A stretch of DNA of 64,000 bases from Candidatus Hadarchaeota archaeon (GCA_964621445.1 CAZUNO010000003.1:124664-188663); one strand, 5' to 3'. Positions 960-26,347 are shown, numbered from the stretch's first letter. Numbers and translations are program-made. Notes: generated by a model from the letters alone, not told the origin.

Positions 960-1076
960 CGGATGAAGTTAGGTTACCCGGTCTTATATTGGATTCCAGG
1001 AGGAACTTCCAGCGTCACCCAGCCGTCAACGGGGGCAGGAGAACATAATTATGCACATCCCATCACCCTGGAGATA

Positions 1077-6567: not shown

Positions 6568-6577
6568 GGCCCCTGTC

Positions 6578-7579: not shown

Positions 7580-7607
7580 TAAAATATACTCCTATATTGA
7601 TCTATAA

Positions 7608-8582: not shown

Positions 8583-8711
8583 CTCTCTAATCCTGCTGAT
8601 GCGTTCCCTGATATTACTCGACAGGTGTTTCTCCTCTGATCCGAATGGATGCGGTCCTCCAGTTCTGAAGGTGAGAGTTAAAGGAGTTATATCTTTTCAA
8701 GTAACGTACCC

Positions 8712-10551: not shown

Positions 10552-10586
10552 ATCGGCCAGATATGGCTTGGATGTGAGGAATCTAT

Positions 10587-11270
10587 TTGGATATTGGAAG
10601 GAGAAGGGACCTCCACATGCACACCATCCTTAGCGATGGAGGTATGATCGCCTCTGAGGTCGCTCGCAGGGCCGAGAACCTCGACCACGCATTGATAGCC
10701 ATTACCGATCACGTTGACAAGTCCAATATCGATATCTGTCTCTCGGGACTACTGGACGCTTTGGCCGACATCAATTCCCTATCTGAAATATCCGTGCTGG
10801 CCGGGGTGGAAATCACCCACGTTCCACCAGCGACCATAGATGAAATCGCCAGGCAGGCCAAGTATAAAGGGGCAAATATAGTGGTCGTGCACGGCGAAAC
10901 CGTGGCCGAGCCGGTCCAGCCGGGAACCAACGCCGCGGCCGTAAACTCCCCCTATGTGGATATCCTTGCCCACCCCGGCTTGATCTCTCCCGAAGTGGCT
11001 CAAACGGCCAGGGAAAACGAGGTTTACATCGAACTGACGGCTAAGGCAGGGCACGACAAGACCAACCCGCACGTAGCCAAGGTATGCCGCGAATGCGGTG
11101 CCAAGATGGTGGTAAATACCGACCTCCATTCTCCAGATGATTTCATCTCTCAAACGGAGGCACTGGAAATTGCGCTAGCGGCGGGCCTGGACAGAAAACA
11201 AGCCATTCAAACGGTAAGGGAAAATCCCATTGAGCTATCTAGTCGTGCTGCCCTTCATTTCCGTCGATAG
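10587..11270 (+). CDS. PHP-domain metal-dependent phosphoesterase
   Basis: 'DLHMHTILSDG' and 'ITDH' His-rich PHP motifs. Confidence 0.55.
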   Translation: MDIGRRRDLHMHTILSDGGMIASEVARRAENLDHALIAITDHVDKSNIDICLSGLLDALADINSLSEISVLAGVEITHVPPATIDEIARQAKYKGANIVVVHGETVAEPVQPGTNAAAVNSPYVDILAHPGLISPEVAQTARENEVYIELTAKAGHDKTNPHVAKVCRECGAKMVVNTDLHSPDDFISQTEALEIALAAGLDRKQAIQTVRENPIELSSRAALHFRR

Positions 11271-12612
11271 ACCGTAATAACCTCTTAACGATCCTACCTT
11301 TTTTAAGATCCGCCTTTTCCGCGCTTGTCCATAGGCTACTTCGCCTATTCTCTCTATCCCCGGCATCCACATCCACCACCCTCTTCACCTCGGTGTACGG
11401 GCTCTCCCTGAACCGGGGCAATAAACGCTTCTCCCCGGCAGGGCCTTGGATAAATACCTGGTCTCCCTCCACTTCTCCTATTCTTTTCGATTTAACCCCC
11501 ACTTCTTCTAGCTTAGCAATCAACGAGGCTGAAATGGAGGGTTTACAGAAGACGAGGAGGGAATCCAATGAAACCCCAAGAACGTCAACGCCCCGGTCCT
11601 CCAGTAGCTTCTTGACCCTCGGGTCTGGCAGGGAAAGTATTTTCGACTCATTTACCCTGGCCCCGTGACCGCATTCCTTGGCTATCTCGTGGAGATCGGC
11701 TCGAATACCTCCGTTGGTTACATCGGCCATGCAGTGGATTCCATCAACTAGTTCGCTATTCAAGATGGCCCTCGCGGCCACCAAAAAATCCACGTTTATC
11801 GTTTCCTGGACCACTTCCGGTTGGCCCGAATAAATTGCCGTGGTGCATATGGTTCCTCCTCCGGCACCCTCGGTCATTATTATGTCGTCCCCCCTTCGCA
11901 CATCCCTACGTGGGAAAAGACGTTCTGCACTTCCAAAAGCACTGACCCCTCCCGTTAGCCGGGAACCTATTACCATGTCCCCGCCGATTCTAAGAGTGCT
12001 TCCCCCCAGTACTGGGCAACCGATAACTTCACAGACCGAGCTAACCCCTGCCATGAACTCGAATAGCTTGGCTACATCCCCATCATCCGCGAGATGGAGG
12101 TCTACTAACAAGCCGCCGGGGGATGCCCCCTTCACATATAAATCCCGAAATGCGGCCCGGGTCACGTGGAATCCGGCCAGGAAGGGGAAATCGCTAAGCC
12201 TTGAATGCATTCCTTCCATCTTGACCACCAGATACCGGCCCTTATCGGTATGTATCGCCCCCGCATCGTCCATGTCCTGGGGGGAGAGAACGGCCGCGCC
12301 TCCGGTGTAGGAGAGGTCGCTTAAAATCTCATGAACGAAGAAATCACCGGTTCCCCTGCAGCCCACGCCCTGCTCACCCATGGTCACCCCTGATCTAGAA
12401 TAACCAATAACGCTCTCCTCCTGGTCCCCGGCAACAAGGCTGGCCTTGACCTCGGAGACGATTGCCCGGGCAATCCCTCGGGCCCTTTCCCGGTCAGTAT
12501 CCTTAAAATCCAGTATCTCACCGGTTAACCTGGTTATGATATCCTCTTCCCCAGTCTCCTTCGCCAACAGGTTACGAGCCAACCCTTCAAGATCCGCCAT
12601 TTTCATCACCAA
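11239..12612 (-). CDS. AIR-synthase-related (PurM-like fold) protein with N-terminal extension
   Basis: 457 aa; glycine-rich PurM-superfamily segments ('EGAGGGTICTTAIY', 'DVTNGGI'); exact family unresolved. Confidence 0.45.
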   Translation of the reverse strand: MVMKMADLEGLARNLLAKETGEEDIITRLTGEILDFKDTDRERARGIARAIVSEVKASLVAGDQEESVIGYSRSGVTMGEQGVGCRGTGDFFVHEILSDLSYTGGAAVLSPQDMDDAGAIHTDKGRYLVVKMEGMHSRLSDFPFLAGFHVTRAAFRDLYVKGASPGGLLVDLHLADDGDVAKLFEFMAGVSSVCEVIGCPVLGGSTLRIGGDMVIGSRLTGGVSAFGSAERLFPRRDVRRGDDIIMTEGAGGGTICTTAIYSGQPEVVQETINVDFLVAARAILNSELVDGIHCMADVTNGGIRADLHEIAKECGHGARVNESKILSLPDPRVKKLLEDRGVDVLGVSLDSLLVFCKPSISASLIAKLEEVGVKSKRIGEVEGDQVFIQGPAGEKRLLPRFRESPYTEVKRVVDVDAGDRENRRSSLWTSAEKADLKKGRIVKRLLRSIDGNEGQHD

Positions 12613-12692
12613 GGCCCTACAGGTCCCGCGAGCATCATTCCTTTCCTCTGGAAGGTAATTTCGCTACTTCTCGAGATATTTATCAGCCTTAC

Positions 12693-13568
12693 TTGGGCCT
12701 AAACTACCGGGAGGCAGCTTTGATAGATATTAGCAATTGCCGACCTGATCCTGATTTCAACGGTAAAACCTATGAGAGAATCGCGAGAACACTAAACCTA
12801 GATACCTATGCTGATCACGAAGCCACTCAAATTCTCCATTCCCTTATGATGGGCAGGGCAGAGGAATCCAGAAATGCCTTGGACCGGCTTGAAGAACTTG
12901 TAAACTCTAGACCTGCCTTCGTATTTGGGTGTGGACCTTCCCTGGATAACCATATCGCGGGATGCATTTCCTATCTGAGATCCGCAAAGGTGGTGACAAT
13001 AGCCGCCGATGGTGCAGCATCTGCCCTCATTGACAGGGAGGTCCTGCCAGATATCGTGGTTACCGACCTGGATGGAATACCGTCCGATATTTCCCTGGCA
13101 TCAAATAGGGGAACCATAGTACTACTACATGCACATGGTGATAACCTGAACTCGGTTCGGAGATGGCTGCCAAGAATCAACAACGTTATACCTGTGACCC
13201 AGACCGAACCGACGGACCTTGTTCACAACTTCGGAGGTTTCACGGATGGAGACAAATCAGTACATGTAGCCTGCCTGTTCGGTTGCTCGGCCTTGCTGCT
13301 TGCTGGAATGGACTTTGGAAACGAGGTGGGCCGATGGTCGTCTCCACAAGGCCCTCATGATGACCTTGGAATGAAACTGAAAAAGCTGGAAATTGGTAGT
13401 GAACTAACAGCCAGATGCATATCAGAATGTGGTGCACCTGTGTATTCACTCCCACCCAGCCCATTCGACTGGGTTCCTGAAATTGAGTGCCAGAGACTTC
13501 CCAAAATTTTGGGCGCTAGGAGAACGAGAGATGAAAGACAAGATGCTAATCGAAAAAATGATGCCTGA
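12693..13568 (+). CDS. mptE: 6-hydroxymethylpterin diphosphokinase MptE-like (DUF115)
   Basis: 'FVFGCGPSLD' and 'IVVTDLDG' DUF115 motifs; first gene of a pterin cluster. Confidence 0.5.
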   Translation: MGLNYREAALIDISNCRPDPDFNGKTYERIARTLNLDTYADHEATQILHSLMMGRAEESRNALDRLEELVNSRPAFVFGCGPSLDNHIAGCISYLRSAKVVTIAADGAASALIDREVLPDIVVTDLDGIPSDISLASNRGTIVLLHAHGDNLNSVRRWLPRINNVIPVTQTEPTDLVHNFGGFTDGDKSVHVACLFGCSALLLAGMDFGNEVGRWSSPQGPHDDLGMKLKKLEIGSELTARCISECGAPVYSLPPSPFDWVPEIECQRLPKILGARRTRDERQDANRKNDA

Positions 13569-14175
13569 AGGTTCGTTACAGGAGCTAATCCTGGTCTCAA
13601 TATCACAGGCTGGGAAAACCAACCTAGCACCAATAGGCGTTTGGAGCGATGATAAAGGGCTCTTGGCAAGGATTGGCCGCGAAACCCAGAGCATGCGTAA
13701 CTTGCTCAGCCGTCCTCAAGCCCGTTTTTGTGTGACCCTGAACCCGCTATTGATAGCCAAATCGGCGTTTAATCTTGATTGCCATGAATTTATCCTGGAT
13801 GATAGCAGAGGACTCCCCCAGATATCCGGTTCCGAAGCCGATATTCTGGTGGAGATGAAGAGCCATAGGGATTTCGTGAAGAGGGACCTGCTTGGGAATT
13901 CGCCCTTTGTAGAGGTGCTCTTCGAGGTAAAGGAGGTCAAGGTAAAAGGATTGCCTCGTCCCCCATCTCGTTCTCTTTGTGCGACCATCGACTCCATCAT
14001 AGGAATAACTAGGGCTAGGCTGGCTCTTGAAAGGGAACTGGAAATATATGAACAGCTGGCTAGGCAGGTAAGAGAAAATATTTCAAAAGCAAGGAGGTTA
14101 GGAACAAACCAGGAAGAGGAGGAGGCCCTCCAGCTGTGCGAGGAAGAGCTGAAAGATATGACTAGAGAGGAGTGA
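13531..14175 (+). CDS. hypothetical protein, possibly DUF447-like split-barrel flavoprotein associated with methanopterin clusters
   Basis: Track ORF starts at 13429 inside the previous gene; in-frame ATG at 13531 ('MKDKMLIEKMM') gives a compact junction. Family assignment weak. Confidence 0.3.
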   Translation: MKDKMLIEKMMPEGSLQELILVSISQAGKTNLAPIGVWSDDKGLLARIGRETQSMRNLLSRPQARFCVTLNPLLIAKSAFNLDCHEFILDDSRGLPQISGSEADILVEMKSHRDFVKRDLLGNSPFVEVLFEVKEVKVKGLPRPPSRSLCATIDSIIGITRARLALERELEIYEQLARQVRENISKARRLGTNQEEEEALQLCEEELKDMTREE

Positions 14176-15737
14176 GCATGAACATGCTCACTGATGAGGG
14201 GGGGAAACCGCTCATAATAACCGGAAGGATCTGCTATCCAAGTATAAGTAAACTCACGCGCGAATTTGAAATCTCCATTTATGAGGTACCGATCGACGTC
14301 GCGGCCTTACTCACGGCAAATGATGTCATCGATGCCATGAAGGATATTGACCTGGAGGAGATAAGCTACGTCATGCTACCGGGTATGTTCAGAGGAGACA
14401 TAGACGCCCTCCAGGAGCGCTTTCAGATACCGTTCTTTCTAGGTCCTACTAACTTCGTTGATATACCTCTAGTAGTAAGCGAAACCTCGATCGCCGAGCT
14501 ATCAAAGACGGTCCCCGCCGATAGGCAAATAGCAGACCATAAGCGGAAAGAGGTTCTTGGCTTCTACAGAGATGCACGCCGCAGGGAAAACCAATGGCAA
14601 GGGGAACCTCTCATTATTGGTCATGATGATAATGGGGTATCCATAGGGAGAGGGTGCCCACCTGCACTGGTTGCCGAGGTCGTTGATGCACCAAGGAAGG
14701 ATGTCAAGGACATCCTAAAGGAATGCAGGCACTACCTTGAATCCGGAGCAGATATCATAGATATGGGGATGATTCCTCGGGAGGATAACTCGAAATGGAT
14801 CACATCAACAATACCCGAGATTAAGGCCGAAATCCAGGCGGCCATCAGTATAGACACAATGTCAGAGAAAGAGATCTTGGCTGCGAACGATCACCAAGCG
14901 GATCTTATTCTAAGTATCTGTGGAAGCACCATTGATTTAGTCCCCAGCATCGACCTGCCCTTTGTGCTAGTTCCCGTTGATGATCCCCAAAGCAAACCCC
15001 CTGATTCCAGCCAAGCCAGAGTAGAGAAGCTAAAATCCTACCTAAAACTCATCGGTAACCGGAATGTAATCCTTGACCCTTTACTGGCACCAATAGGAAC
15101 TGGATTCTATTCATCCATTAAATCGTATTTAAAACTGGAGGAGGAACTCCCGAAATTTCCATCATTAATGGGGATAGGAAATGTTACCGAATTAATCGAT
15201 GTTGATTCCATTGGCATCAACGCAGTGCTCGCTGCTTTGGCGCTCAAGGCAAACACGTCATTGATCTTAACAACGGAAAACAGCCAAAAATGTAGAAACT
15301 CGTTATCGGAGCTCAGCACAGCTTTAGCGATGATCTATTACTCACAACAGAAAAAAATAGTCCCAAAAAACATGGGCCTTAACCTCCTTCGCTACAAGGA
15401 AAAGAGGAAAAGGATTGATCCCACACCTCTAGCAAAACCTGAAATCAAGGCAGGAAAAGGAAAGCAAAAAACGGATATTGATAGGAATATAAAGTTCCAC
15501 ATTTTACTAAGGAACAAAAGAATTCATGTACTGAGGGAGGGAGAGGGAGATAAGATCCATCTTTCGGGGAATTCCGCCATGGACATCTGCTTTGAGCTGG
15601 ATAGGCAAGAACTATTGCCGGGACCAGCCCATTCCGTGTATTTAGGAAGGGAGCTGGCAAAGGCAGAGACCGCGCTAAAGACCGGCCGTAGCTACATCCA
15701 GGACCAGAACCTATTCACTGAGGTTGATGAGTCTTGA
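14172..15737 (+). CDS. mptH: dihydropteroate synthase-like pterin-binding protein with C-terminal extra domain (MptH-like)
   Basis: Pterin-binding TIM-barrel features ('GADIIDMG', 'ISIDT'); C-terminal 'GDKIHLSGNSAMDICFELDRQ' resembles the extension in archaeal DHPS-like proteins. Confidence 0.5.
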   Translation: MSMNMLTDEGGKPLIITGRICYPSISKLTREFEISIYEVPIDVAALLTANDVIDAMKDIDLEEISYVMLPGMFRGDIDALQERFQIPFFLGPTNFVDIPLVVSETSIAELSKTVPADRQIADHKRKEVLGFYRDARRRENQWQGEPLIIGHDDNGVSIGRGCPPALVAEVVDAPRKDVKDILKECRHYLESGADIIDMGMIPREDNSKWITSTIPEIKAEIQAAISIDTMSEKEILAANDHQADLILSICGSTIDLVPSIDLPFVLVPVDDPQSKPPDSSQARVEKLKSYLKLIGNRNVILDPLLAPIGTGFYSSIKSYLKLEEELPKFPSLMGIGNVTELIDVDSIGINAVLAALALKANTSLILTTENSQKCRNSLSELSTALAMIYYSQQKKIVPKNMGLNLLRYKEKRKRIDPTPLAKPEIKAGKGKQKTDIDRNIKFHILLRNKRIHVLREGEGDKIHLSGNSAMDICFELDRQELLPGPAHSVYLGRELAKAETALKTGRSYIQDQNLFTEVDES

Positions 15738-16729
15738 AAACTGGAGTTCGGGTTAAAACCGGTCCAAGACTCCATTTCGGCTTGTTAGACCTATCCGGTG
15801 ACATGGGCAGGGTGGACGGTGGAATCGGCATGGCCCTTCAGGAACCTTCTCTGGTCATCCAGGGTAGGAGATCGAGTTCCACGAAAAGCAACAAGTTCTC
15901 TAAACTGGTTGAGTATGCGGTTGACGCTCTAAACAAGCATTATGATAAAAATTACAGCCTCGATATCCAGGTAGATCGATCTTACCCCCAGCACGTGGGA
16001 CTGGGATCCACCACCCAGATCCTCCTCTCAATCTCATACATCTACAACTTAATTTTCGGACGAACACATAACTCGCGAGAAATGGCCAATTTGCTAGGGC
16101 GAGGTGGAACATCCGGGATTGGGGTAGCATCCTTTCGATCAGGAGGCTTCATACTTGATGCAGGTCATACCTTTGGTCATAACGGTGAAAAGAATACATT
16201 CCTGCCGTCGAGGGTTTCTAATTGTCCTCCTGCACCCGTTCTCTTTAGGCATCGCATTGCATCTGACTGGGTCGTTGATCTACTCGTACCCCTTGATTCC
16301 CCAGGCCTCTCCGGTAGACCTGAAGCCGAATTCTTTCAGAAAAAATGCCCAATTCCTCGGCCAGAAACCGATAGGATATCTAGAATAGTATTATCAATTA
16401 TCCTTCCAAGCGTTATTTCATCTGATATTAAACGCTTTTCTAAAGGCATTAACCTACTTACAACGTTGGGATTCAAGTATCTAGAGATACAAAACCAATC
16501 TGAATACGTAAGGAATCTAATTTCCGATATTAAACTGGTTACTAAAAATCAAGCAGCAGTTGGTTTAAGTTCATTTGGTCCAACCGTTTTTGTTATAAGT
16601 AAAAATAATTTAAGAATGAAATTCATTGATAAATTAAAGGATCACATATCGTATATACAATCACAACATGGAGTTACTTACTACGTAACAAGGTGTAGAA
16701 ATATTGGGGCTACTGTAAATGTATGGTAG
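15734..16729 (+). CDS. mptG: beta-ribofuranosylaminobenzene 5'-phosphate synthase-like (GHMP kinase fold)
   Basis: N-terminal 'RLHFGLLDL' and GHMP 'GLGSTT' motif. The last 350 nt are markedly AT-rich relative to the rest of the gene. Confidence 0.55.
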   Translation: MKTGVRVKTGPRLHFGLLDLSGDMGRVDGGIGMALQEPSLVIQGRRSSSTKSNKFSKLVEYAVDALNKHYDKNYSLDIQVDRSYPQHVGLGSTTQILLSISYIYNLIFGRTHNSREMANLLGRGGTSGIGVASFRSGGFILDAGHTFGHNGEKNTFLPSRVSNCPPAPVLFRHRIASDWVVDLLVPLDSPGLSGRPEAEFFQKKCPIPRPETDRISRIVLSIILPSVISSDIKRFSKGINLLTTLGFKYLEIQNQSEYVRNLISDIKLVTKNQAAVGLSSFGPTVFVISKNNLRMKFIDKLKDHISYIQSQHGVTYYVTRCRNIGATVNVW

Positions 16730-16917
16730 TTATCTTCATTGTTTGATTGTTTGACAAAGGAAACAGAACAACCTGAAAGAGGGGTACTATTGAGTTTTGT
16801 TTGATCGTTTGAATGATTATAGTTGTAGCTCCGATGGATATCTTGGAAAAGAGCATTTTCCCACCTGGTTTAGTTTTTTGTTTGTGTATGTTTGTTCAAA
16901 TGTTCAAATGGATTGGG

Positions 16918-18018
16918 TTATCCCTTTTTGAAGGCTCTGGTAATATCTTTGGAGAGAGTGTACTTGTTTTTTCTCCCGACTTTTTCCACTTGAACTGCTC
17001 CCATGTTACGTAACCTGTTTAGTTGGGTGTTTATGCTACCGTAGTTGTCAACGTCGAGTTCATCTAGCACATCCTTTATGAAGGCACCGTCGGGATAGTC
17101 AACAAGGGCCTGGATTATCTCACTTTGTTGTGGTGAGTATCTTTCTAGGATCTGTTCTCTCATTGGGCCCGTGTCCTTCTTCTTTCCTAGGTAATCAGCG
17201 ACCAGATCGGCATCTATAACATCTTTCCCTGACCTAATAGTCTGGAAGACTAATTGAGCTGCTATGGTTAGAGTATCCCTGGGTACCCCGTTTGAGTGTG
17301 CATGGATCTGTTCTATCGCCTCGTCTGTGAAGGGAAGGCCATCCTCTACTTCCTTCTCACCCCTGGCCCATGCTATTCTCCTGTAGATAAGTTCCTTTGT
17401 TTCTTCTAGGTCGAATGCCTCGAGGTAGATACGCATCTTTATTCGATCCTCGAGCGGAGGAACTTTCTTCCTGATGGTGTCTAGAGCATCTTCAGTTCCC
17501 GCGAACACTATGGACCCGCCGGCATCGTGTAGGGTTCTCACCCATCGGGCAGCTGGTTCGGATATTTCCTGGAATTCGTCGATTAAGATAACGATGTTTT
17601 CTTGTTGTAGGTGTTGTGTTATGTTTGTTGCAATTCTGTCTAGCTCTAGGGCCCTGTTTCTGGAAAAGATGGAGGATAGTCTTTCCAGGATGGAGGGTGA
17701 GTGAACGTTTTGATGTATGTGCCGGAGCATTTCGTCGTGGGTAAGGGGTTTTTCTATTAGGATTACCTTTCCGCCATTTTCCTTGCGAAGCATGTAGTGA
17801 AGCTTCTTTAGAAATGCGCTTTTACCATATCCTATGGGGGAAAGAATGGATACCATGCCCTGGTTATGTTGAAGCATGAAGGTTGCTTGGTTAAGTTCCT
17901 CTTCGTATCTGGGAACATAAACGAATTCATTGGGTAAAGGAGTATTCAGAATAAAGGGTTCTCTTCCGTGAGTCCAGCCTTGTTTGTTATAGAACTCCTC
18001 TGTTATGTTGGTGTTCAA
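16918..18018 (-). CDS. AAA+ ATPase with C-terminal winged helix (archaeal ATPase/AAA_22-like; Orc1-like not excluded)
   Basis: Walker A 'SPIGYGKSAFL', Walker B 'ILIDEFQ', C-terminal wHTH-like 'NRLRNMGAVQVEKVGRKNKYTL'; sits in a low-GC, GT-skewed island. Confidence 0.5.
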   Translation of the reverse strand: MNTNITEEFYNKQGWTHGREPFILNTPLPNEFVYVPRYEEELNQATFMLQHNQGMVSILSPIGYGKSAFLKKLHYMLRKENGGKVILIEKPLTHDEMLRHIHQNVHSPSILERLSSIFSRNRALELDRIATNITQHLQQENIVILIDEFQEISEPAARWVRTLHDAGGSIVFAGTEDALDTIRKKVPPLEDRIKMRIYLEAFDLEETKELIYRRIAWARGEKEVEDGLPFTDEAIEQIHAHSNGVPRDTLTIAAQLVFQTIRSGKDVIDADLVADYLGKKKDTGPMREQILERYSPQQSEIIQALVDYPDGAFIKDVLDELDVDNYGSINTQLNRLRNMGAVQVEKVGRKNKYTLSKDITRAFKKG

Positions 18019-18019
18019 T

Positions 18020-18563
18020 TTCTACCACTGAGGTGCGTGCCTTAAGGATCGTCTTGTGCGGGTAAACCTAAACATCACTCTAACGTTTGCTGAACATAGA
18101 TAACGTACGGCTTCCAATAATTGATAGGCAAATCTCGTTCTAATAAAGCTTTTTGTTTTATTTGTTGGCCCATGTTTTAGTTGTTGTTGCGCTCTGATCA
18201 GAAGTTGTATGAATAGTTGGGTTTGTTGTTATTGTTGGGGTGCTTTGGTAGGCAATTTTGATAGGCCTGGATATATCCAAAAGCAGATGATAATGATTTC
18301 GTTTGGTTTGTTGGTCTATTGTGTTCCTTCCGTTATGCTTGAATGTTTGGTGGGGTTTAACTCAGAGACCGTTGTTGGTCTTGTTGGAGTTAGTTATTGC
18401 TTACGTTAGGAGTTTGTATATGTTTGTTATTGATACGTTTACCTGTTAGCTGAACCGTTTATTGATGCGGTATAGTTGTTAGGCAGGTTTGAATTTGTTT
18501 GTTTTGGTGTTATTGGCGGTGGATAATGGCTGTTTAATTTGTTGATTTGTTATTAAGCGTATG
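18020..18563 (+). other. 544-bp non-coding stretch with strong G+T skew on the plus strand and a recurring 'gttattg' motif
   Basis: Only low-complexity ORFs; base composition unlike flanking coding DNA. Confidence 0.4.
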
Positions 18564-19493
18564 TTATGCTTTAGCTCGACCTATTAAATGGCGGGAAATT
18601 GCGCCAGTTACGTCAACTCCGGATGCCCTAGCGGTTGCTTCAAATGATGGAGAAGGGTTAACTTCAAGTAGCTTATGCCCTTCGGAAGTATCAAGAATGT
18701 CTACGCCGGCAATATCTAGATTAAGTACTTCTGAAGCCTTAATAGCGTCTTCAGCCATCTCAGCGGGTATATATTGTTTATCCAGCGCCTCTGCGGTGGC
18801 ACCAAGGGATATATTATGCTTGTATATGGAGCCCTGTCGCTTTATTGCAGCGATGATTTCATTACCAACAAGCAGTATTCTAATATCATATGAGGAAGGA
18901 ATGTAGGGCTGGATCATGGCGGGTTGTTTGTTCATATGAAAGAGGGAAAGGGTGTCTCCTAAACAAACATCATCCTTAGCTAACATAACACCAATCCCAC
19001 CAGCGCTTTGAAGGGCCTTGATTACACAGGGGGAATGGATAGTTGAGTTTGTTATATGTATGTTACGTATGGGGTTTGGTGATACGAAAAAGGGAACTAT
19101 TGGTAAATCATTTTTAGATAGAATGGAGAGACAAAGATGCTTCCTGGCGCTTAGATATATGGAACGCGGATGGTTAATAACGGGGACTTGTTGAGAGGCA
19201 ATCCACATGGTCTCAAAAAAGAATTGGAAACATCTAGGACCGTATTCCTCAAGCCATGAAGATATGGGCCTTTGGAAAATTAGATCAAAGGAGGAAAATG
19301 ACATGTTTTCAACTTGGCCGTAAGCTAGGTCATTTAGGTCTGGAGAAGGGCCTGAACCGGTTTGAGGATGATTGATTAGGGAGAGCCAGGTGTCATTTGG
19401 ACTGAAAACATCAAATTCGATGCCCAGGGAATTGAATTTTGGGGCAAAAAGGGATACTTCCTTTTTGTTTTTTGGAAAGTAGGCTATCCTCAT
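18564..19493 (-). CDS. RimK-family ATP-grasp alpha-L-glutamate ligase (MptN/CofF-like)
   Basis: ATP-grasp C-terminal core ('VNPSPSFE', 'DIAGVDILD'); 309 aa is typical of RimK-type ligases; AT-rich codon usage. Confidence 0.55.
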   Translation of the reverse strand: MRIAYFPKNKKEVSLFAPKFNSLGIEFDVFSPNDTWLSLINHPQTGSGPSPDLNDLAYGQVENMSFSSFDLIFQRPISSWLEEYGPRCFQFFFETMWIASQQVPVINHPRSIYLSARKHLCLSILSKNDLPIVPFFVSPNPIRNIHITNSTIHSPCVIKALQSAGGIGVMLAKDDVCLGDTLSLFHMNKQPAMIQPYIPSSYDIRILLVGNEIIAAIKRQGSIYKHNISLGATAEALDKQYIPAEMAEDAIKASEVLNLDIAGVDILDTSEGHKLLEVNPSPSFEATARASGVDVTGAISRHLIGRAKA

Positions 19494-20085
19494 TGGAATT
19501 CCCTTTGATTTTATGTTATGACTTGTAGCATAACAAGAAGGGGGGGAAAAGTTATATGTGTTGTTATGATTAGAATAATGGAGTAAGAAAGGGGTTGGCT
19601 GATAACGGCAAGGTTAGAGATTTGGGTTAATAACAATAGGGGGTAAATGGGGAAATTACAAATAAATATTAATAAGATTGATTCCAAAAGTTATTAATCA
19701 TTTTATTCAGCATTGGAATTAGAAGCCAGAAATGCGTTCATGAAGATATGAGATGACATTAATCCTGTATCTGGGACGTTGGAGATTATCATTTGCTAAA
19801 TAAAGAAATCTAAGGGCCTGGCCTGCCGGTTACGGGCATTAATTGTAAATCATAATAAGTCTCAAAAAGGGGGGTGGAAACGGAAAAAAAGAAAGAGGCA
19901 TCTCGAAAAGGGGCAAAAGGGGGGTGCTAGTGTAACTATATATGAATTAGGGCTGCAATAAGGTTTAATTAAAAAAATGGACAGCTATGGGGGCATAAGA
20001 GGAGTAATGGGAAGCAAAAAGGGGTTTGATGGGTAATAAGATGGGTGTTAGGAGGGGGTCAAGGATGCAGGATTATTTCTAATAC
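19494..20085 (+). other. 592-bp purine-rich non-coding region with G runs
   Basis: No ORF of 60 aa or more in any frame; A+G-rich on the plus strand; lies between the ATP-grasp gene start and the mfnB-like gene end. Confidence 0.4.
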
Positions 20086-20793
20086 TCAAATTAGGGTTTC
20101 TTTGAAACGATCAACCCTATGTGCCGTTATTTTACCGTTACGCCGGTCGTTAGATTGACAGGCAGCACCTCTGATACCTATAACATCTGGTGATAATGTT
20201 TTGAGTTGTTTAGAGTGATTCAGATTTAGGGAGCCGGCCAGGGCGGAGATCATATCCATTTCCTGGAGGTGGGAGATAAATGAACAGAGTTCATCATAAG
20301 CCATGAAGTCAAACAAACATCTACCATCTTTGTTTATTGTGTCGATAAGGACCCCATCAGCTCCAGATTGGGATGCCGCCTGGAGTAGGACCAGGGGGGA
20401 AATGGACCCAACAAGTTCCCAGTCGGCGTAGCCACAGGCTATTACCTTAATCGAGGGATCGATTGATTTAACGATATCAACGGAGGGGGTGAGTAGGGCT
20501 TGGGCCTCGGATTGGGTTTTTGTACCAAAGAGACCAAGCTTAACGTAATCCGGTGAAAGATATGCCGCCCCGGCGGCTGCCAAGCTGACGGTTCCGGGAA
20601 GATTTGGGAGATCACCTATAGCACAACTGGTTTCACTTGTTCCGTTTACGGCATCGATAATCCTAGAGGCCTTCTGGGGAGTTGGGGCTCCAAGAGAGCC
20701 CTCCGCGGGATTCTTTATGTCAACAATGTCGGCGCCACCCGAGATGGCTTCTGGCACCTCTTCCTCGTCTACAACGCTGACTAGTAACCTCAT
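20086..20793 (-). CDS. mfnB: (5-formylfuran-3-yl)methyl phosphate synthase MfnB-like (DUF556)
   Basis: 'MRLLVSVVDEEEV...GGADIVDIKNPAEGSLGA' and 'DVIGIRGAAC' closely match my recollection of M. jannaschii MfnB. Confidence 0.65.
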   Translation of the reverse strand: MRLLVSVVDEEEVPEAISGGADIVDIKNPAEGSLGAPTPQKASRIIDAVNGTSETSCAIGDLPNLPGTVSLAAAGAAYLSPDYVKLGLFGTKTQSEAQALLTPSVDIVKSIDPSIKVIACGYADWELVGSISPLVLLQAASQSGADGVLIDTINKDGRCLFDFMAYDELCSFISHLQEMDMISALAGSLNLNHSKQLKTLSPDVIGIRGAACQSNDRRNGKITAHRVDRFKETLI

Positions 20794-21464
20794 GATGTGA
20801 TGGTAGAGGATTCGCTATAAATATGAGTTCCATACGTTCGGCCGTTAACCAAAAGCTGATGAATTCGTTTTGGGTGGTGACCATTTACAATCCATGCCTC
20901 AAGTCCATGTTTCCTAAGAATAATCGGGAGATATTCGTCTACCAGGGATTGACGGTGACCGGAGAGGTCCTTTGCTGTGAGGGATTTGATGATCTCTTTG
21001 GATTTTTGATTCGTCAGCCCATCAACAGATTTTAATAGAAGCAATTTGGAGTTTAGGGTATTGGCTAAATAAGCGGAGATTGTATCGGAGGTCACTTCCC
21101 AGCTTTGGGGAAGATCTGATTCCTTGATAGGCGAGTAGGGAAGAAAAATGGGGATCGGTTTGCCGGGTTCCGGCTTTGGCTGCGTCGATAGGCTAAAGTA
21201 ATTCGGCCAGCTAGATTCAATACAATAAGCGTTGAGGTGCATGGCAAGGATTGCCAGCCAGTGAGAACCTCTATTCCCAATACTGTAGTTATGCCCCAGT
21301 TTTCTGATTAGATCTGCATAGGAGCCCCCACCCGCTACAGCCGCAATATCTTTTATCTTATGGACATTCCAAAGCTCGCCGACTATTTCTTCCAGTATCT
21401 CACTTGCGTCATTTATGAGACTTCCACCGATCTTCACGACCCACATTACTTGGCCATCCTCCAT
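20790..21464 (-). CDS. amino-acid-kinase-family small-molecule kinase (MfnE-like)
   Basis: 'VVKIGGSL' N-terminal kinase motif and 'AVAGGGS'; 4-bp overlap with mfnB-like suggests co-translation. Confidence 0.45.
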   Translation of the reverse strand: MEDGQVMWVVKIGGSLINDASEILEEIVGELWNVHKIKDIAAVAGGGSYADLIRKLGHNYSIGNRGSHWLAILAMHLNAYCIESSWPNYFSLSTQPKPEPGKPIPIFLPYSPIKESDLPQSWEVTSDTISAYLANTLNSKLLLLKSVDGLTNQKSKEIIKSLTAKDLSGHRQSLVDEYLPIILRKHGLEAWIVNGHHPKRIHQLLVNGRTYGTHIYSESSTITS

Positions 21465-22582
21465 GCCTCAATCGAAAGTGAAACCGCTGGAGCTGTAGTG
21501 CAAACCTCCTTTTCCAGGCCGGCAACATCCATGTTGAGTTCCTGGTTCACGAAATTTTGGAAGGGGATAGGTGTTTTTAATCCGGTCTTTAGGGCGGCTG
21601 GTTTGGCAAGACATTCAGAGCCGCTTCCCGCGATAATACAGGGAATCTCTGTCCCGAGTTTGGCTCTGTTGAGAACAAAGCCGATGGACTTCTCCACCCT
21701 TTCAATCTGTCTATTGCGAACCGAGACGGCGATTTCTCGGATCTGGTTCCCATTAAGCTCTTGAAGGTCCGAGCACACGACTCTGGCCAGTCTTCTCATG
21801 CAGGCGGTAAGGTTTGTTCCCTTGCCATCAGCTGTAGGTCCGCCGTAATCACCTGGACCTAACAGACCGAGAATTATGTTGACATCGCCCATAGTTGCAA
21901 ATTCCTCTGAAGCGCAGGGGATTTCACTACCACCCAAATTCACCGAGTCCACTACTGTGGCTACGTTGGTCCTAGTCGAACCGGTGTATACCAGTTCCCG
22001 ATTCTTGAGTCTACCTCTGTCCGTTGGGTCATTGACAGCTGGACGTCCAGATAGGATGGGGATTATATCGGTGGTGGTTGATCCCGAATCTATTAGCAAG
22101 GACTGGGAGTGAGCTCTCCCTATCAGCAAGGATGTTGGGACCCAATTTGCTGCGGCGACTTCCAATGGGCGGGATATTGCTGTTTTGCCCTTAACCACCG
22201 ATCCCGAGTTTAGGATGATTCTGGTTTCTGGCTCCTGTTCTAGGAGACTAGAAAGAACGAATTCTACTCCCTGCTTTTTTGATTGGAAGCAATCCGCGAG
22301 CTCCGCCGTCATGGTGGCCAAGGTTAGATGTGGGACAGCCTGGTAGGGCTCCAATAGCTTCTGAACTAATTTGGGGAAAGAGCGGTAGTTCTTCCAAAAT
22401 GGATGGTAGATTGATTTTAGGTCACGGATTTCGAGCCCCTCTCCCCCATTTGAGGTTACTGCAATTTTGGTGTTTGCACCGCCAATATCTAACCCGATTG
22501 CTAGCATTTGATGTGCCTCTCTGATAGCCATTTCTTTACACGGGCAAATCGTTGAGGTATCTCCATGGAGTCCTTGGCCCAA
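21446..22582 (-). CDS. hydantoinase/ASKHA-fold protein of the H4MPT-linked C1 family (MfnF-like)
   Basis: 'LAIGLDIGGANTK' ASKHA phosphate-1 motif; the real start may be the internal M near 22528. Confidence 0.45.
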   Translation of the reverse strand: MGQGLHGDTSTICPCKEMAIREAHQMLAIGLDIGGANTKIAVTSNGGEGLEIRDLKSIYHPFWKNYRSFPKLVQKLLEPYQAVPHLTLATMTAELADCFQSKKQGVEFVLSSLLEQEPETRIILNSGSVVKGKTAISRPLEVAAANWVPTSLLIGRAHSQSLLIDSGSTTTDIIPILSGRPAVNDPTDRGRLKNRELVYTGSTRTNVATVVDSVNLGGSEIPCASEEFATMGDVNIILGLLGPGDYGGPTADGKGTNLTACMRRLARVVCSDLQELNGNQIREIAVSVRNRQIERVEKSIGFVLNRAKLGTEIPCIIAGSGSECLAKPAALKTGLKTPIPFQNFVNQELNMDVAGLEKEVCTTAPAVSLSIEAWRMAK

Positions 22583-23685
22583 ACACAGGTCAATACCTTG
22601 CTTTTTCCCTTCATATAGTAGGGACCCACAGGAAATGGTGGGGAAACTATCATCTTACTTTGAAACATCTTCTGGTGGATTGATTGGTCAAATGGGACGG
22701 TCCGGATTAAGGGTAGTATGGACCATTTTGAAAAGCCCTCAGTATCAACAGCGGTTTTCTCCCCGGTGATGATCGATGCCAATCCTTTCTGGATTATCTT
22801 TTCTATACCTATACATGATGTGGTCATCCTGGGATTTATCTCCATAAAATGAGCCTTGCCCTGACTATATACAAAGTCTAGGGTCATCAGGCCCTTAAGC
22901 TTGCTCTTTGTTACCATGGAGGAGATATCATCCCAAAGCCCACGAACGGGAAGGGGGAATGGGCTGGAACCACCCAGGTATTCAAGCTCTTGAGAAGCCT
23001 GGATGGCTTGGGTGTTAATTGCAAGAGGAATTACCTCGCTTTCCATGGCCATGAAGGTCGCACTGAGGTGGCGTCCCTGCTTGAATTCCTGAATAATGGC
23101 AGAATTCCACCCGGAGCTCCTTAATTTTGCAGCTGCGCGTCTGCAATCGCTATTGCTTCTAACTATGGTTGTGCCCTCGCATCCAGCCCCGTCAGGGGGT
23201 TTTATAACCAGGGGTAAACCCATTTTGGGGATTGCCCTGGATATTTCCTTGGTAGTAGATTCAGTGGTTAAGGTTCTGGGCACGGACAGGAAATTGCATT
23301 GCTGGTCGACTAATTCAAATGAAGAGGGCTTATTCGCCAACCGGGAAACCGTTCCCGAGGGGCAGCTCAACAATTCCGTTTCCTGCTCAATGGCACGAGT
23401 GAGCTCGAGGAGTTTTCCGCCTGATTCTGGAGCAATTATGAAAGCGGCGTCGAAGCTAGATGAAGTCTCTGGGAGCTCTTCCATTGGGTTTTCCCGGGGA
23501 AATACCAGATCATAGATCGGTAAAAAACCGGCCTCTCTCTTTAAACTCTTATTAACTGCGGCGGTAACCTCGTGACCATCCTTTTTGAAGGATTCACATA
23601 ACGTCCGGAGCATGCCGAACCCCTGTGGCAGAATGCTTCTCGGCCCGCCCTTGAGTGATGTCCATTCCGACAGGAGGAGCTTCAT
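22501..23685 (-). CDS. ATP-grasp ligase (MfnD-like, tentative)
   Basis: 394 aa; ATP-grasp core ('LPLVIKPPDGAGCEGTTIV', 'MEINPR'). Confidence 0.4.
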   Translation of the reverse strand: MKLLLSEWTSLKGGPRSILPQGFGMLRTLCESFKKDGHEVTAAVNKSLKREAGFLPIYDLVFPRENPMEELPETSSSFDAAFIIAPESGGKLLELTRAIEQETELLSCPSGTVSRLANKPSSFELVDQQCNFLSVPRTLTTESTTKEISRAIPKMGLPLVIKPPDGAGCEGTTIVRSNSDCRRAAAKLRSSGWNSAIIQEFKQGRHLSATFMAMESEVIPLAINTQAIQASQELEYLGGSSPFPLPVRGLWDDISSMVTKSKLKGLMTLDFVYSQGKAHFMEINPRMTTSCIGIEKIIQKGLASIITGEKTAVDTEGFSKWSILPLIRTVPFDQSIHQKMFQSKMIVSPPFPVGPYYMKGKSKVLTCVWAKDSMEIPQRFARVKKWLSERHIKC

Positions 23686-23734
23686 GGCTACGCATTTAAT
23701 AGCGGACTTCTTTTAAATCTGGTGAGCTGGGACC

Positions 23735-24448
23735 TTGAGAATCATTCCCGTTCTGGATATTCTTGATGGAAAAGTTGTAAGGGGTGTTGCTGGTAATCGG
23801 AAGAGGTACAAGCCGGTCACCAGTTCCATAACCGATTCAGTTCATCCGGTGCAGGTTGCCCGGGATCTCCTTGACATTCACACCTTCCGGGAAATCTACA
23901 TAGCCGACCTCGACGCTATCGAGGGCAGGCCCGACAACAGGGAGCTTGTGAAAGAAGTATCTGAATTGGGCTGCCAGGTTTACCTCGACTCCGGAATTAC
24001 GGGTCCGGGGGACATTGACCCGGATTACGAAATCAACCACCTGGTAGCTGGAACCGAGACCCTGGATTCATTGGAGGTCTTGGCAGAGATCTGTCAGATG
24101 CACCCGTCTGTAGTTTCCAGCTTGGATTACAAGGGAGATGACCTGCTTTGCCGAGAGGAAAGCCTGAAACATATGAAACCCCGAGAGCTCGTCGCCAGCG
24201 TATGCGCTGCAGGCGTTTCGGAGATCATCTACCTGGACCTGGCTCGGGTTGGAACCGGTTCCGGTGTAGTATGCGAGAGAGTTGAGATGGTCATAGAAGC
24301 GTCCGAGGTACCGGTGATCGTGGGAGGCGGGATTAGGAATGCATCCGATATTCGATCCCTTGATGAGGCTGGGGCGGATGGTGTTTTGGTTGCGAGCTGC
24401 GTTCACTCAGGTGAGTTGGATGAAGGGGACCTAGAGGGTTTGACCTGA
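23735..24448 (+). CDS. HisA/HisF-family TIM-barrel protein (paralog associated with cofactor clusters)
   Basis: 'RIIPVLDILDGKVVRGV' and C-terminal 'VIVGGGIRNASDI' phosphate-binding motifs of the HisA/HisF fold. Confidence 0.55.
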   Translation: MRIIPVLDILDGKVVRGVAGNRKRYKPVTSSITDSVHPVQVARDLLDIHTFREIYIADLDAIEGRPDNRELVKEVSELGCQVYLDSGITGPGDIDPDYEINHLVAGTETLDSLEVLAEICQMHPSVVSSLDYKGDDLLCREESLKHMKPRELVASVCAAGVSEIIYLDLARVGTGSGVVCERVEMVIEASEVPVIVGGGIRNASDIRSLDEAGADGVLVASCVHSGELDEGDLEGLT

Positions 24449-25425
24449 TGATATCTAAGGCTCTTTATGAACTCATTAGGGGCCTCTCTGCTGGACCCTA
24501 CCAGGATTCTGTGGTATGAGCGGTTTCCGGAGACCCTTTCCAATATACCTTTACATTGAACCATTTCGCCACTGCGTGCCTGCCCAACGTAGGTATGGGT
24601 ATAGGACACGATTTCCGATATCTCAAATCCCGAATATTCACATTTCTCAACCTTGTATATCGCCGGGTAATCATAGGCCCTATTAGCATCTCTCACCATG
24701 CATTCAGCTCGGGCCTGTTCAATCCTCTGGTATCTTAAGTCTCCGAAGGATCCGGAGATCTCATGGGGCTTCCGGCAGGAGAGCAGGTCAAACCTTACAT
24801 CGCCCAGCTTAGCCCGATTGAATTTTCTGGTCTCGTGCCAGACGAATTCCGCGAAGGAATAATCCCCATTTGCTTCAATACCTCTTTTGGAATAGATATC
24901 CTTCCAATCGGTTCTGCCCAGTGCTGCGATTCTGTCCTCGGTAATGGCTCTCTTTACCGAGTTAACTGTCTTGGAAAGGTTATCTAGCCCGTACACGACC
25001 AGGTCAACATCCGAGCTGGTATTCTGGGCGCCGATAAGGTAGGACCCGGTAATTCCCATGTCATCCAGCGACAGATTAGATTCGGAAATGATTATTGATA
25101 CGATATCCGATACTATAGGAGCCGTCCCCCGTTCAAGCAAGTCCTTTAAGGCAGGACCGGGCATGTAATGCCTCTTGATCGAGGATCTTGGAACGATCGT
25201 AAGTTTTCGGTCAAATTCCGGCCGAAAATGGACGTAGTTAGGGGCATGTTTTTGTAGATACAGGCGTGATTCCTCGCTCGATTCAAACTTATGAATATCC
25301 CCACACTCTCTTCTGTAACGAAGCTGGGATACAACGCCGGAAATTGGATGGTTGAATAGGAGAACGGAGAAAATCAGACCATCCTTGGTTTCAATGAAGT
25401 CCCTTACCCGGTACATGCGATTCAC
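24403..25425 (-). CDS. nucleotidyltransferase-domain protein (Pol-beta superfamily), function unknown
   Basis: 'GITGSYLIGAQNTSSDVDLVVYG' fits the G[GS]...D.D nucleotidyltransferase signature. Confidence 0.3.
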   Translation of the reverse strand: MNRMYRVRDFIETKDGLIFSVLLFNHPISGVVSQLRYRRECGDIHKFESSEESRLYLQKHAPNYVHFRPEFDRKLTIVPRSSIKRHYMPGPALKDLLERGTAPIVSDIVSIIISESNLSLDDMGITGSYLIGAQNTSSDVDLVVYGLDNLSKTVNSVKRAITEDRIAALGRTDWKDIYSKRGIEANGDYSFAEFVWHETRKFNRAKLGDVRFDLLSCRKPHEISGSFGDLRYQRIEQARAECMVRDANRAYDYPAIYKVEKCEYSGFEISEIVSYTHTYVGQARSGEMVQCKGILERVSGNRSYHRILVGSSREAPNEFIKSLRYHQVKPSRSPSSNSPE

Positions 25426-25479
25426 AAATATATCGCCGATGAGTAATATCTTTAGTTGGCCTAGTATTAGGATCAGACA

Positions 25480-26160
25480 GTGATTGCTGGAATTGTGCCC
25501 TGCAAGGGACTGAAAAATGGGAAAACTAGGCTTGATCTTCCACCTGAACTTGGGAGAGAAAAGAGGGAGCTAATAATATCAATGTTTGATCGGGTTCTAA
25601 AAGCGATGGTGGAAAGCAGGCTGGAGACGGTCTATGTAGTGAGCCCTGACGAAGGCATCCTTGAGCATGGTTCCGCTTTGGGAGCGCGGACAATTCTTGA
25701 ATACAATCCCTCGGGGGCCAATTCCGCTGTTGAGCTGGCTAATAAAAAAGCGATTAAAGACGGCTTTGAGGCAACGCTCGTTGCTTTTTCGGACATTCCT
25801 CTTATCTCGAAGCGGGACCTAAACGGAATACTGGACTTGATTATTGAGTCTAACAGATGCGTGGCCGCGCTCCGTTCAAGGAGGGGGGGAACGAACCTTC
25901 TATTGCGGAAACCTCCTTCGGCAATACCATCTCGATACGGGAAAAACAGTTTTATCAAGCATCGCGATGAGACAATGCAGAATAGAATTCCCTTCTTTGA
26001 GTATGTGAGCAACCCGGCGTCCCTCGATGTAGATACGATATCCGATTTGAGGCTCTTGTTTCGGGGTGAGAGGTCGGCAGGGAATGAGTTGGAAAAAGAA
26101 GAACAATTTCGAATCTCACAAAGGATCACGGAGGCATTAGATTGGCGAAGTCGAGAATAG
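25480..26160 (+). CDS. cofC: MobA-like nucleotidyltransferase, CofC-like (2-phospho-L-lactate guanylyltransferase family)
   Basis: N-terminal 'MIAGIVPCKGLKNGKTRL' and 'AFSDIPLI' resemble CofC/MobA-type guanylyltransferases. Confidence 0.4.
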   Translation: MIAGIVPCKGLKNGKTRLDLPPELGREKRELIISMFDRVLKAMVESRLETVYVVSPDEGILEHGSALGARTILEYNPSGANSAVELANKKAIKDGFEATLVAFSDIPLISKRDLNGILDLIIESNRCVAALRSRRGGTNLLLRKPPSAIPSRYGKNSFIKHRDETMQNRIPFFEYVSNPASLDVDTISDLRLLFRGERSAGNELEKEEQFRISQRITEALDWRSRE

Positions 26161-26289
26161 TTGTCGTGGAAGGTCTTAGTTATCTGGTTCCAAGAAAGAA
26201 GTACAAGGTGGCAAGGAAGGAATGTCCTCCAGCAGTCGATACCTGGGATTATATTATGGATCACATAGAGGATTATGGTAGACTGTTGG

Positions 26290-26340
26290 ATGAGGAAGAG
26301 GAACTAGAGGAAGAAGAGGAAGAAGAGGAAGAAGAGGAAT
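26290..26340 (+). repeat. GAA/GAG trinucleotide repeat encoding a poly-Glu tail
   Basis: 'gaagaggaagaagaggaagaagaggaa' forms the 3' end of a 66-aa ORF (26142-26342). Confidence 0.5.
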
Positions 26341-26347
26341 AACCTAT

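Follow-up and report, generated by a model that had tools for sequence, protein, structure and literature searches.

A conserved triplet of DNA elements beside a clade-specific AAA+ ATPase gene in Hadarchaeota: a possible replication origin with a non-canonical initiator

To our knowledge, the archaeal replication origins described so far are recognized by Orc1/Cdc6 (or WhiP) bound to boxes of the origin recognition box (ORB) type. In the oriC of Pyrococcus abyssi, oriC1 of Sulfolobus and ori1 of Aeropyrum, elements of about 24 bp lie in both orientations in AT-rich intergenic DNA beside a gene for an AAA+/winged-helix protein, orc1/cdc6, and the G/C and T/A asymmetry of the strands switches at the site. 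A similar arrangement is found in 64,000 nucleotides of DNA from a Candidatus Hadarchaeota archaeon (GCA_964621445.1, CAZUNO010000003.1:124664-188663; this whole stretch is called the window, and positions are counted from its first letter). There, an AT-rich spacer named IG1 (16730-16917) separates the convergent genes of an mptG-like enzyme and of an AAA+ ATPase with a C-terminal winged helix-turn-helix (wHTH), and holds three putative binding elements of ~24 bp, of which M1 and M2 are direct and M3 is inverted. The locus is a candidate chromosomal replication origin with a non-canonical initiator, a tentative assignment to which we give somewhat less than an even chance. An origin is the most economical reading because the AT valley, the element triplet, the conserved AAA+-wHTH gene and a switch of strand asymmetry coincide within about 1.3 kb and are kept throughout the clade. 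The locus differs from the archaeal oriC in that its protein lies outside the Orc1/Cdc6 family, and its element, composed of tandem TTTGA half-sites 8 bp apart and GGATA, is unrelated to ORB and mini-ORB. The site is also only about 190-220 bp long, lies between convergent 3' ends and has no clear unwinding element in high-GC relatives. The features concerned are the following.

15734-16729, + strand: mptG-like gene for beta-ribofuranosylaminobenzene 5'-phosphate (beta-RFAP) synthase, the last gene of the tetrahydromethanopterin (H4MPT) operon; its 3' third, 16380-16729, is the left slope of the GC valley
16730-16917: IG1, the convergent spacer of 188 bp between the mptG and AAA stop codons; GC 0.35
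16740-16763, + strand: element M1, TGTTTGATTGTTTGACAAAGGAAA
16798-16821, + strand: element M2, TGTTTGATCGTTTGAATGATTATA, which starts 58 nt beyond the start of M1
16887-16910, - strand: element M3, the inverted copy, CATTTGAACATTTGAACAAACATA, 9 nt from the AAA stop codon
16918-18018, - strand: gene for the AAA+ ATPase (AAA_22/ExeA-like core, lid, C-terminal wHTH), 366 aa, TTG start

Contigs bearing homologues of the locus come from independent assemblies (JGI, ENA, NCBI and Logan). They represent, together with the window, eight lineages: the window, L002/L015, L003, L004/L005, L006/L007, L008, L009 and L016. The relatives are labelled Hadarchaeota in two GTDB records and 'uncultured Thermococci' in one. 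The consensus of the element, derived from an IG1 alignment with 24 copies in the eight lineages, is TGTTTGAnyGTTTGAAnnnGGATA. In every lineage M1 and M2 are direct repeats spaced 58-60 nt from start to start, and M3, always in the inverted orientation, is 4-15 nt away from the AAA stop codon. One mismatch at most being allowed, the 64 kb contain three copies of the core GTTTGANNRTTTGA (0.54 expected), each of them in IG1, and the exact sequence TTTGANNNTTTGA is confined in the fetched loci to the equivalents of IG1. Repeated elements in both orientations within intergenic DNA, a hallmark of oriC, are represented by M1(+), M2(+) and M3(-). The GC content of IG1 is 5-23 points under the locus average in all eight lineages.

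When IG1 is folded with RNAalifold, M2 pairs with M3 with an unfavourable covariation term of +0.97. The fold is without covariation support, and the conserved feature is therefore the sequence and not base pairing. Conserved sequence without structure is what would be expected of protein-binding DNA. The elements might nevertheless act at the RNA level: M1 and M2 in the 3' untranslated region of mptG, and M3 in that of the ATPase gene, would be processing signals or sites for an RNA-binding protein, and the two G-poor spacers to the right, IG2 and IG3, would be untranslated regions selected to remain unstructured. All three copies are sense-oriented for the transcript that would contain them, and the sense strand of IG2 and IG3 is depleted of G and folds like shuffled sequence. 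Against such a role stands the lack of covariation, structure or an Rfam family, and it leaves unexplained both the rigid 58-bp spacing and a change of asymmetry that extends over tens of kb at neutral sites. We consider it very improbable.

That change was measured as GC skew at four-fold degenerate sites, with the + and - genes taken apart on each side of IG1, which separates coding-strand effects from effects of the DNA strand. The values are as follows.

Right of IG1, window: + genes +0.004, - genes -0.293; strand effect +0.15, Fisher p 2e-18
Right beyond 23.7 kb, window: + genes +0.004 (11 genes), - genes -0.264 (14 genes); effect about +0.13, p 3e-14
Right, L002, L004, L006 and L008: + genes -0.01 to +0.17, - genes -0.22 to -0.38; effect +0.18 to +0.21, p 3.8e-6 to 0.0028
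Left, window: + genes -0.130, - genes -0.036; effect -0.05, p 0.15, not significant
Left, L002 and L004: + genes -0.05 and -0.10, - genes +0.01 and -0.03; effects -0.03 and -0.04, p 0.31, not significant
Left, L003, L006 and L008: + genes -0.20 to -0.26, - genes +0.02 to +0.03; effect -0.11 to -0.14, p <= 0.0035

On the right side of the window a T>A effect (-0.109, p 3e-7) goes with the G>C effect. To the left, all six loci have a negative effect, which is significant in three of them (L003, L006, L008). A change-point fit to the 43 genes of the window places the best boundary just before 16918, with an effect of -0.02 to its left and +0.15 to its right and a gain in log-likelihood of 13.8 over a single-effect model. 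The intergenic skews agree, being about -0.05 left of IG1 and mostly positive right of it. The leading strand is G/T-rich as a rule in bacteria and in those archaea in which skew has served to locate oriC, for example Pyrococcus. The + strand is G/T-rich on the right, with the opposite bias or none on the left, and the polarity is therefore that of an origin if the leading strand is G/T-rich. An asymmetry switch of this polarity, also expected of an oriC, is seen in 5-6 lineages, the effect being between ~0 and -0.14 left of IG1 and between +0.15 and +0.21 right of it.

A change of asymmetry at IG1 would also accompany a replication terminus or fork trap, in which M1 and M2 face M3 as opposed polar barriers bound by the adjacent winged-helix protein. 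The parallel is RTP/Ter of Bacillus subtilis, where a winged-helix gene likewise lies beside opposed composite sites at which the asymmetry changes. Here, too, two sites point one way and one the opposite way beside a wHTH gene, and the gene orientation (9 of 12 genes on the + strand left of IG1, 20 of 31 on the - strand right of it) fits forks that converge on IG1. A terminus should have the reverse polarity, however, provided that the leading strand is G/T-rich, as the + strand is G/T-rich on the right and not on the left; in this the Hadarchaeota skew is of the origin type. RTP, moreover, is a small dimeric wHTH protein with no ATPase, neither RTP nor Tus is an AAA+ protein, and the predicted fold of the Hadarchaeota ATPase groups with initiators and with DNA-loading or target-selection ATPases. 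A terminus is improbable.

The asymmetry step has another conceivable source. The locus may be a locus-specific DNA-binding or regulatory module without a role in replication, where the AAA+-wHTH protein or some other factor on M1-M3, at the convergent 3' ends, would control termination, read-through or the collision of the H4MPT transcription unit with that of methanofuran/RimK/ATPase. The long spacers would then be untranslated regions and promoters, and the step would reflect a codon preference particular to the operons, the better-expressed genes of the dominant orientation using C-ending codons. In keeping with this, the ATPase gene is fixed inside a conserved cofactor cluster, each of the two convergent genes has a sense-oriented element just past its stop codon, IG2 and IG3 carry conserved boxes resembling the TFB recognition element (BRE) and TATA, the coding-strand excess of C rises along both converging strings of genes as their 3' ends are approached, and the left asymmetry is not significant in three of six loci. 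Codon preference does not explain, however, why the difference between + and - genes on the right spans 25 unrelated genes past the cofactor operons (the 3e-14 comparison above), is paralleled by the T>A effect and extends to intergenic DNA. As no other gene is followed by a copy of the element, it is no general terminator, and 3'-end operator sites at a rigid 58-bp spacing are not a regulatory layout known to us. Identity of 99-100 % between the ATPases of lineages with about 35 % synonymous divergence would also be unusual for an operon regulator. A purely regulatory module is in our judgement doubtful.

The ATPase itself is confined to the clade. Sixteen clusters among 5.8 billion match it at 63-100 % identity, after which the identity drops to 26 %, and in an exhaustive HMMER search the clade forms one 50 %-identity cluster, with the next match at E 1e-32. 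The next matches constitute a wider archaeal family of ~350-370 aa AAA_22/ATPase_2-plus-wHTH proteins. Within the clade the ATPase is conserved at about 74-84 % identity, compared with 27-63 % for its neighbours. Among L006, L008 and L009 its amino-acid identity is 99-100 % while four-fold sites are 57-71 % identical, which suggests that purifying selection constrains it about as strongly as it does core informational proteins. Pfam AAA_22 matches the protein with 42.1 bits (cut-off 27), TIGR03015 covers residues 20-277, and the motifs GYGKS, ILIDEF and GVPRD (Walker A, Walker B and the GxPR sensor-2) are invariant in the alignment. Its domain order, an AAA+ base, a lid and a C-terminal winged helix, is that of the Orc1/Cdc6 proteins, which have about 370-420 aa, and the modelled fold is predicted to be Orc1/Cdc6/TnsC/MuB-like.

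Two groups of ATPases come closest in sequence. The ExeA/GspA-TniB-TnsC-MuB ATPases share the AAA_22 domain; in contrast to them, the Hadarchaeota gene has no transposase or secretion genes nearby, is chromosomally fixed in a phylum-level clade, encodes a protein with a wHTH fused at its C-terminus and is very strongly constrained by purifying selection. The wider archaeal family ('AAA family ATPase'), which occurs in Aenigmarchaeota, in other euryarchaeal metagenome-assembled genomes and on haloarchaeal plasmids, is alike in full-length homology (E 1e-32 to 1e-16) and in domain order, and a haloarchaeal plasmid member aligns with the Hadarchaeota family at an hhalign probability of 97.7 %. 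Against this background the Hadarchaeota proteins are a tight, isolated subfamily with at most about 30 % identity to the rest. The neighbourhoods of the other members examined differ, and a fused wHTH is missing from the haloarchaeal ones. When the wider family is aligned with haloarchaeal Orc1/Cdc6 by hhalign, the probability is 54 % (E 1e-4, 15 % identity); Pfam ORC-CDC6-like is weakly matched by 5 of 20 wider-family members and not by the window protein.

The haloarchaeal plasmids that encode a homologue of the AAA family without the wHTH include L018 (19953-20882, 21901-23190) and L017 (25127-25342, 25581-26510). In Natrinema zhouii the homologue lies ~1 kb upstream of an annotated orc1/cdc6 gene. 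A 29.8-kb plasmid of N. thermotolerans, which has no annotated Orc1/Cdc6 or Rep, carries the homologue after a separate small wHTH gene. These plasmid contexts hint at a role of the AAA family in replication or maintenance.

Several observations weigh against an origin. By its sequence the ATPase is not a member of the Orc1/Cdc6 family: Cdc6_C (PF09079) and TIGR02928 gave no match at E<=0.01 in the Pfam and NCBIfam searches, a sequence-profile search of the PDB returned no Orc/Cdc6 chain at E<=1, and the N-terminal and sensor-2 motifs are presumably those of ExeA/TniB, the latter being GVPRD where Orc1/Cdc6 has GDAR. Pfam on 30 open reading frames (ORFs) and tblastn with haloarchaeal Orc1, which make a weak test, gave no canonical Orc1/Cdc6 in the 64-kb window or the fetched loci. 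The elements resemble no known ORB or mini-ORB box, and the spacer between M2 and M3 has 44-55 % GC in L002, L003, L006, L008 and L009, with no obvious unwinding element there. The asymmetry raises difficulties of its own. Boundaries from 12.7 to 16.9 kb fit nearly equally well, since all genes in this interval are on the + strand, which sets the limit of resolution. The left arm is short (10-16 kb) and its asymmetry weak in three lineages; in the window lineage it is ~0 (-0.02 to -0.05) and does not mirror the right. The skew reaches its maximum 1-3 kb to the right of IG1, over IG2, the RimK-like gene and IG3, and not at IG1, with no equal mirror on the left. Finally, genes on both sides are mostly directed at IG1, so that an origin there would be subject to head-on transcription.

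If the locus is an origin, a sequence-specific DNA-binding protein would assemble on M1-M3, the adjacent AAA+ wHTH ATPase being the obvious candidate. Orc1/Cdc6, TnsC and MuB are ATP-dependent DNA-binding proteins. IG1 and the 3' end of mptG, both low in GC, would provide an easily melted valley, and the composition break in mptG would be the edge of this valley instead of a recombination junction. Forks would depart in both directions and would account for a rightward + strand that is G/T-rich, or 'leading-type', at neutral sites over at least 47 kb, with a leftward signature that is absent or reversed. The RimK-like ligase and the ~0.6-kb spacers would be conserved passengers, the spacers containing promoters, terminators and long G-poor untranslated regions. 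From this scheme we infer that the ATPase would bind M1-M3, that the DNA would be unwound here, that the minichromosome maintenance (MCM) helicase would be loaded and that replication would start here. The scheme can be made more specific: a compact origin would lie between convergent genes, in place of Orc1/Cdc6 an ExeA/TnsC-like AAA+ protein that is specific to the lineage and fused to a winged helix would recognize its three boxes, and the 2-kb skewed zone would be the mutational footprint of origin firing. In this full form the proposal is unlikely. If true, it would bring to three the kinds of cellular AAA+ replication initiator, with their origin boxes, in archaea. The archaeal phylum Hadarchaeota is deep and has barely been cultured; a non-Orc1 origin-like site in it would widen the known range of cellular initiators. 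No description of the ATPase subfamily, the element triplet, or the origins or replication of Hadarchaeota was found in the searchable literature. Two findings are new even if the site is not an origin, namely the rigidly spaced element triplet and a clade-restricted ATPase in the H4MPT/methanofuran cluster.

The locus is part of a zone of unusual composition, the remaining features of which are these.

18019-18563: IG2, ORF-free spacer of 545 bp, A/C-rich and G-poor on the AAA/RimK coding strand, T/G-rich on the + strand
18139-18148, - strand: putative BRE/TATA promoter of the AAA gene, CTTTATTAGA after the A-rich tract AAACAAAAAG, 121-130 nt before the start codon
18564-19493, - strand: gene for a RimK-family ATP-grasp ligase, coding strand C-rich and G-poor
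19494-20085: IG3, ORF-free spacer of 592 bp, C/T-rich and G-poor on the RimK/mfnB coding strand
20086-20793, - strand: mfnB, for 4-(hydroxymethyl)-2-furancarboxaldehyde phosphate (4-HFC-P) synthase (Pfam 4HFCP_synth E 4e-73, and NCBIfam), at the right edge of the low-GC zone

A sequence-only reading of the window had described the + strand from about 16380 as AT-rich and G+T-skewed, and the computed values agree with it. The GC content of 16380-20350 is 40.5 %, compared with 52.3 % in the left flank and 52.1 % in the right; base frequencies on the + strand are A.267, C.161, G.244 and T.327 (GC skew +0.205, AT skew -0.101). The interval has the lowest 4-kb GC of the 64 kb (mean of 4-kb windows 0.513, standard deviation 0.036), and the global minimum for 600 bp, 0.323, is at 16371-16970, where it takes in IG1 and the change point of the asymmetry. 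The 24 highest 500-bp windows by GC skew are all inside 18001-19851 (64-kb mean 0.046, standard deviation 0.115). The composition break that the same reading had placed inside the mptG-like gene is also real: GC changes from 0.489 in the N part to 0.309 in the C part from 16380. The codon positions differ as well, GC at third positions (GC3) going from 0.47 to 0.23 and at first and second positions from 0.50 to 0.35, and the share of FYMINK amino acids increases from 0.23 to 0.36. The dip as a whole has no sharp bounds, since GC3 is 0.38-0.54 across the cofactor region at ~12.7-26 kb and ~0.6-0.7 elsewhere in the window. The contents reported for the island, an AAA+/wHTH ATPase, a RimK-like gene and two stretches without ORFs, were confirmed, the stretches measuring 545 bp and 592 bp.

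It had been suggested that the island marks a recombination or acquisition event with a junction inside mptG. In favour of a recent acquisition, or of a chimeric assembly, is the composition alone, that is, the 40.5 % versus 52 % GC and the abrupt drop at ~16380 within the gene. The comparison with relatives does not bear it out. The gene order is common to all eight lineages: MptE, DUF447, a dihydropteroate synthase (DHPS)-like protein and MptG, the last read toward IG1, are followed by AAA_22, a gap, RimK, a gap and MfnB, all in the opposite direction, and by MfnE, MfnF and MfnD. The gaps are kept as well, IG2 at 545-687 nt and IG3 at 445-664 nt, and the assemblies are independent. The metabolic proteins of the locus are 27-63 % identical between distant lineages and four-fold sites are saturated, with an identity of 0.26-0.43, the random level; the arrangement is old for these reasons. 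The mptG product matches the NCBIfam model BetaRFA-P_synth end to end (residues 6-327 of 331 aa, E 1.8e-84). A separate search with its N-terminal 215 aa and its C-terminal 116 aa, which should have exposed parts of differing taxonomy, gave the same nearest relatives for both, P0001 at 93 % and 93 %, P0002 at 54 % and 54 %, and then one clade. Within the MptG family the C-terminal domain is less conserved than the rest, and the corresponding third of the gene is the lower-GC part in every relative. An independent contig, L001, crosses the junction with an equal drop in GC. A scan of genome contigs with the mptG protein alone gave no match, and a metagenome scan gave duplicates only.

No integrase, transposase, tRNA or flanking direct repeat was found at the locus. 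Phage and viral-contig collections hold no meaningful relatives of the ATPase, haloarchaeal plasmids hold relatives at 29 % identity or less only, and a PADLOC search for defence systems with the ATPase gave no match. The low GC of the spacers and of RimK is not general, these being 53-61 % GC in L006, L008 and L009. Judged by these sequence relationships, the locus is ancestral and vertically inherited in Hadarchaeota, and is not foreign DNA; a recent acquisition, a recombination junction in mptG or a chimeric assembly has hardly any probability left. A horizontally acquired island was rejected, the locus being at one place in eight of eight lineages and without mobility genes. A sharp intragenic composition break can thus be the border of an AT valley that is conserved and functional, and is not necessarily a recombination scar.

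The sequence-only reading had offered, as its other possibility, an origin-like region beside an Orc1-like ATPase, with ORB-like repeats to be looked for in the ORF-free stretches. This idea survives in part. An element triplet and a skew switch do exist, at IG1 and not in the ORF-free stretches, and the ATPase is Orc1-like in predicted fold and domain order only. A search with the ORB/mini-ORB pattern TCCANNGGAAAC, at most two mismatches allowed, gave 93 matches against 76.5 expected, and none of these is in IG2 or IG3; in and around the locus the matches do not exceed chance. The repeats of the island and of three relatives are low-complexity direct repeats of the TGTT type, with no convincing long inverted repeats.

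IG2 and IG3 are conserved in other respects. On the + strand IG2 has C.125, T.415 and a GC skew of +0.35, and IG3 has C.095 and a GC skew of +0.49. The excess of G over C on the mptG-sense strand recurs in the relatives (IG2 +0.35 to +0.59, RimK +0.06 to +0.40, IG3 +0.22 to +0.49). Between distant lineages there is essentially no sequence conservation past short blocks, and the length of the spacers and the depletion of G on the AAA/RimK coding strand are kept despite the poor alignability. The close lineages L006, L008 and L009 differ in IG2 at about the synonymous rate, with almost no indels. The short blocks of IG2 include CTTTATTAGA, which is invariant in six of six loci tested, 115-140 nt before the AAA start; from the archaeal BRE/TATA consensus we infer that it and the A-rich tract form a putative promoter of the AAA gene. 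They also include the CA-rich blocks ATAACACC, AACTCCAACA and AACAAACA, which are conserved in this order. IG3 has several oligo-T tracts past mfnB, of which TTTTTGAG at 19861-19868(-) is common to five of six loci, and a TATA-like box, TATTAA, at 19669-19674(-), in invariant alignment columns about 175 nt before RimK. Neither spacer contains a conserved ORF, the open stretches varying in frame and length by lineage, and neither has an Rfam match at gathering or E<=1 thresholds. The fold z-scores of -0.8 (IG2) and -0.4 (IG3) are no better than those of shuffled sequence, and G-quadruplex motifs on the G-rich strand are absent from the region in five of six loci.

The RimK-like protein matches Pfam RimK with E 1.9e-28 and 99.8 bits (cut-off 21) and remains under the equivalog cut-offs of rimK_fam (126, cut-off 143), MptN_Meth (103, cut-off 350) and CofF (65, cut-off 300). 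Its best named model is the H4MPT:glutamate ligase MptN, below cut-off, and the gene is probably part of the cofactor theme and not cargo. The four-fold GC skew on its coding strand is -0.75 (-0.37 to -0.77 in the relatives), and its synonymous sites are the most C-rich and G-poor of any gene examined. Candidate explanations for the extreme skew peak over IG2, RimK and IG3 are selection for G-poor unstructured transcripts, or a locally amplified loss of cytosine from the + strand beside an origin.

Some smaller observations also concern spacers. A search for periodicity in IG2 and IG3 gave no strong signal; the base autocorrelation of IG2 has a weak one at lags 3 and 9 that is consistent over seven lineages (mean z about 2.1), and its source may be an (AAC)n-like composition or the remnant of a very old coding sequence. 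In L004, IG2 (12462-12934) contains four direct copies of GCGGTGTTTAATTTGTT; the window has one related copy, AACAAATTAAACAGCC on the minus strand, just past the RimK stop codon. Another convergent spacer of the window, 26161-26347 (187 bp), has a G>C skew of +0.47 and A>T on the + strand, and is the sole other intergenic region of the window with a skew comparable to that of IG2 and IG3.

The surroundings of the locus are dominated by cofactor genes. The H4MPT operon left of IG1 consists of the MptE-like, DUF447, DHPS-like and MptG genes, and mfnB is the final gene of the methanofuran operon mfnD-F-E-B. Both belong to a large conserved cofactor cluster, which occupies 5872-16729 and 20086-26160 in the window and is likewise present in L002, L004, L006 and L008. 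On one side it comprises AA_kinase, PhoU/MazE-like, Asn_synthase-like, Rv2949c-like, PHP, AIRS-like, MptE, DUF447, DHPS-like and MptG genes, and on the other MfnB/E/F/D, a HisA-like gene, a gene without known function and CofC.

Elsewhere in the window, five large ORFs (324-806 aa) are without a Pfam match at E<=1e-4: 32519-34939, 38838-40616, 56232-57461, 7608-8582 and 24403-25425. A tRNA gene at 35834-35930 (+), of 97 nt and probably intron-bearing, was found with Rfam (55.8 bits) and missed by ARAGORN. A giant ORF of 3045 aa at 46875-56012 (-) entered the codon statistics. The gene at 873-4994 (+) encodes a fused 'large' phosphoribosylformylglycinamidine (FGAM) synthase of 1373 aa (FGAR-AT_N, linker, AIRS_C, PurM_N-like, GATase_5); the fused enzyme is typical of bacteria and eukaryotes, and archaea usually have separate PurL, PurQ and PurS.

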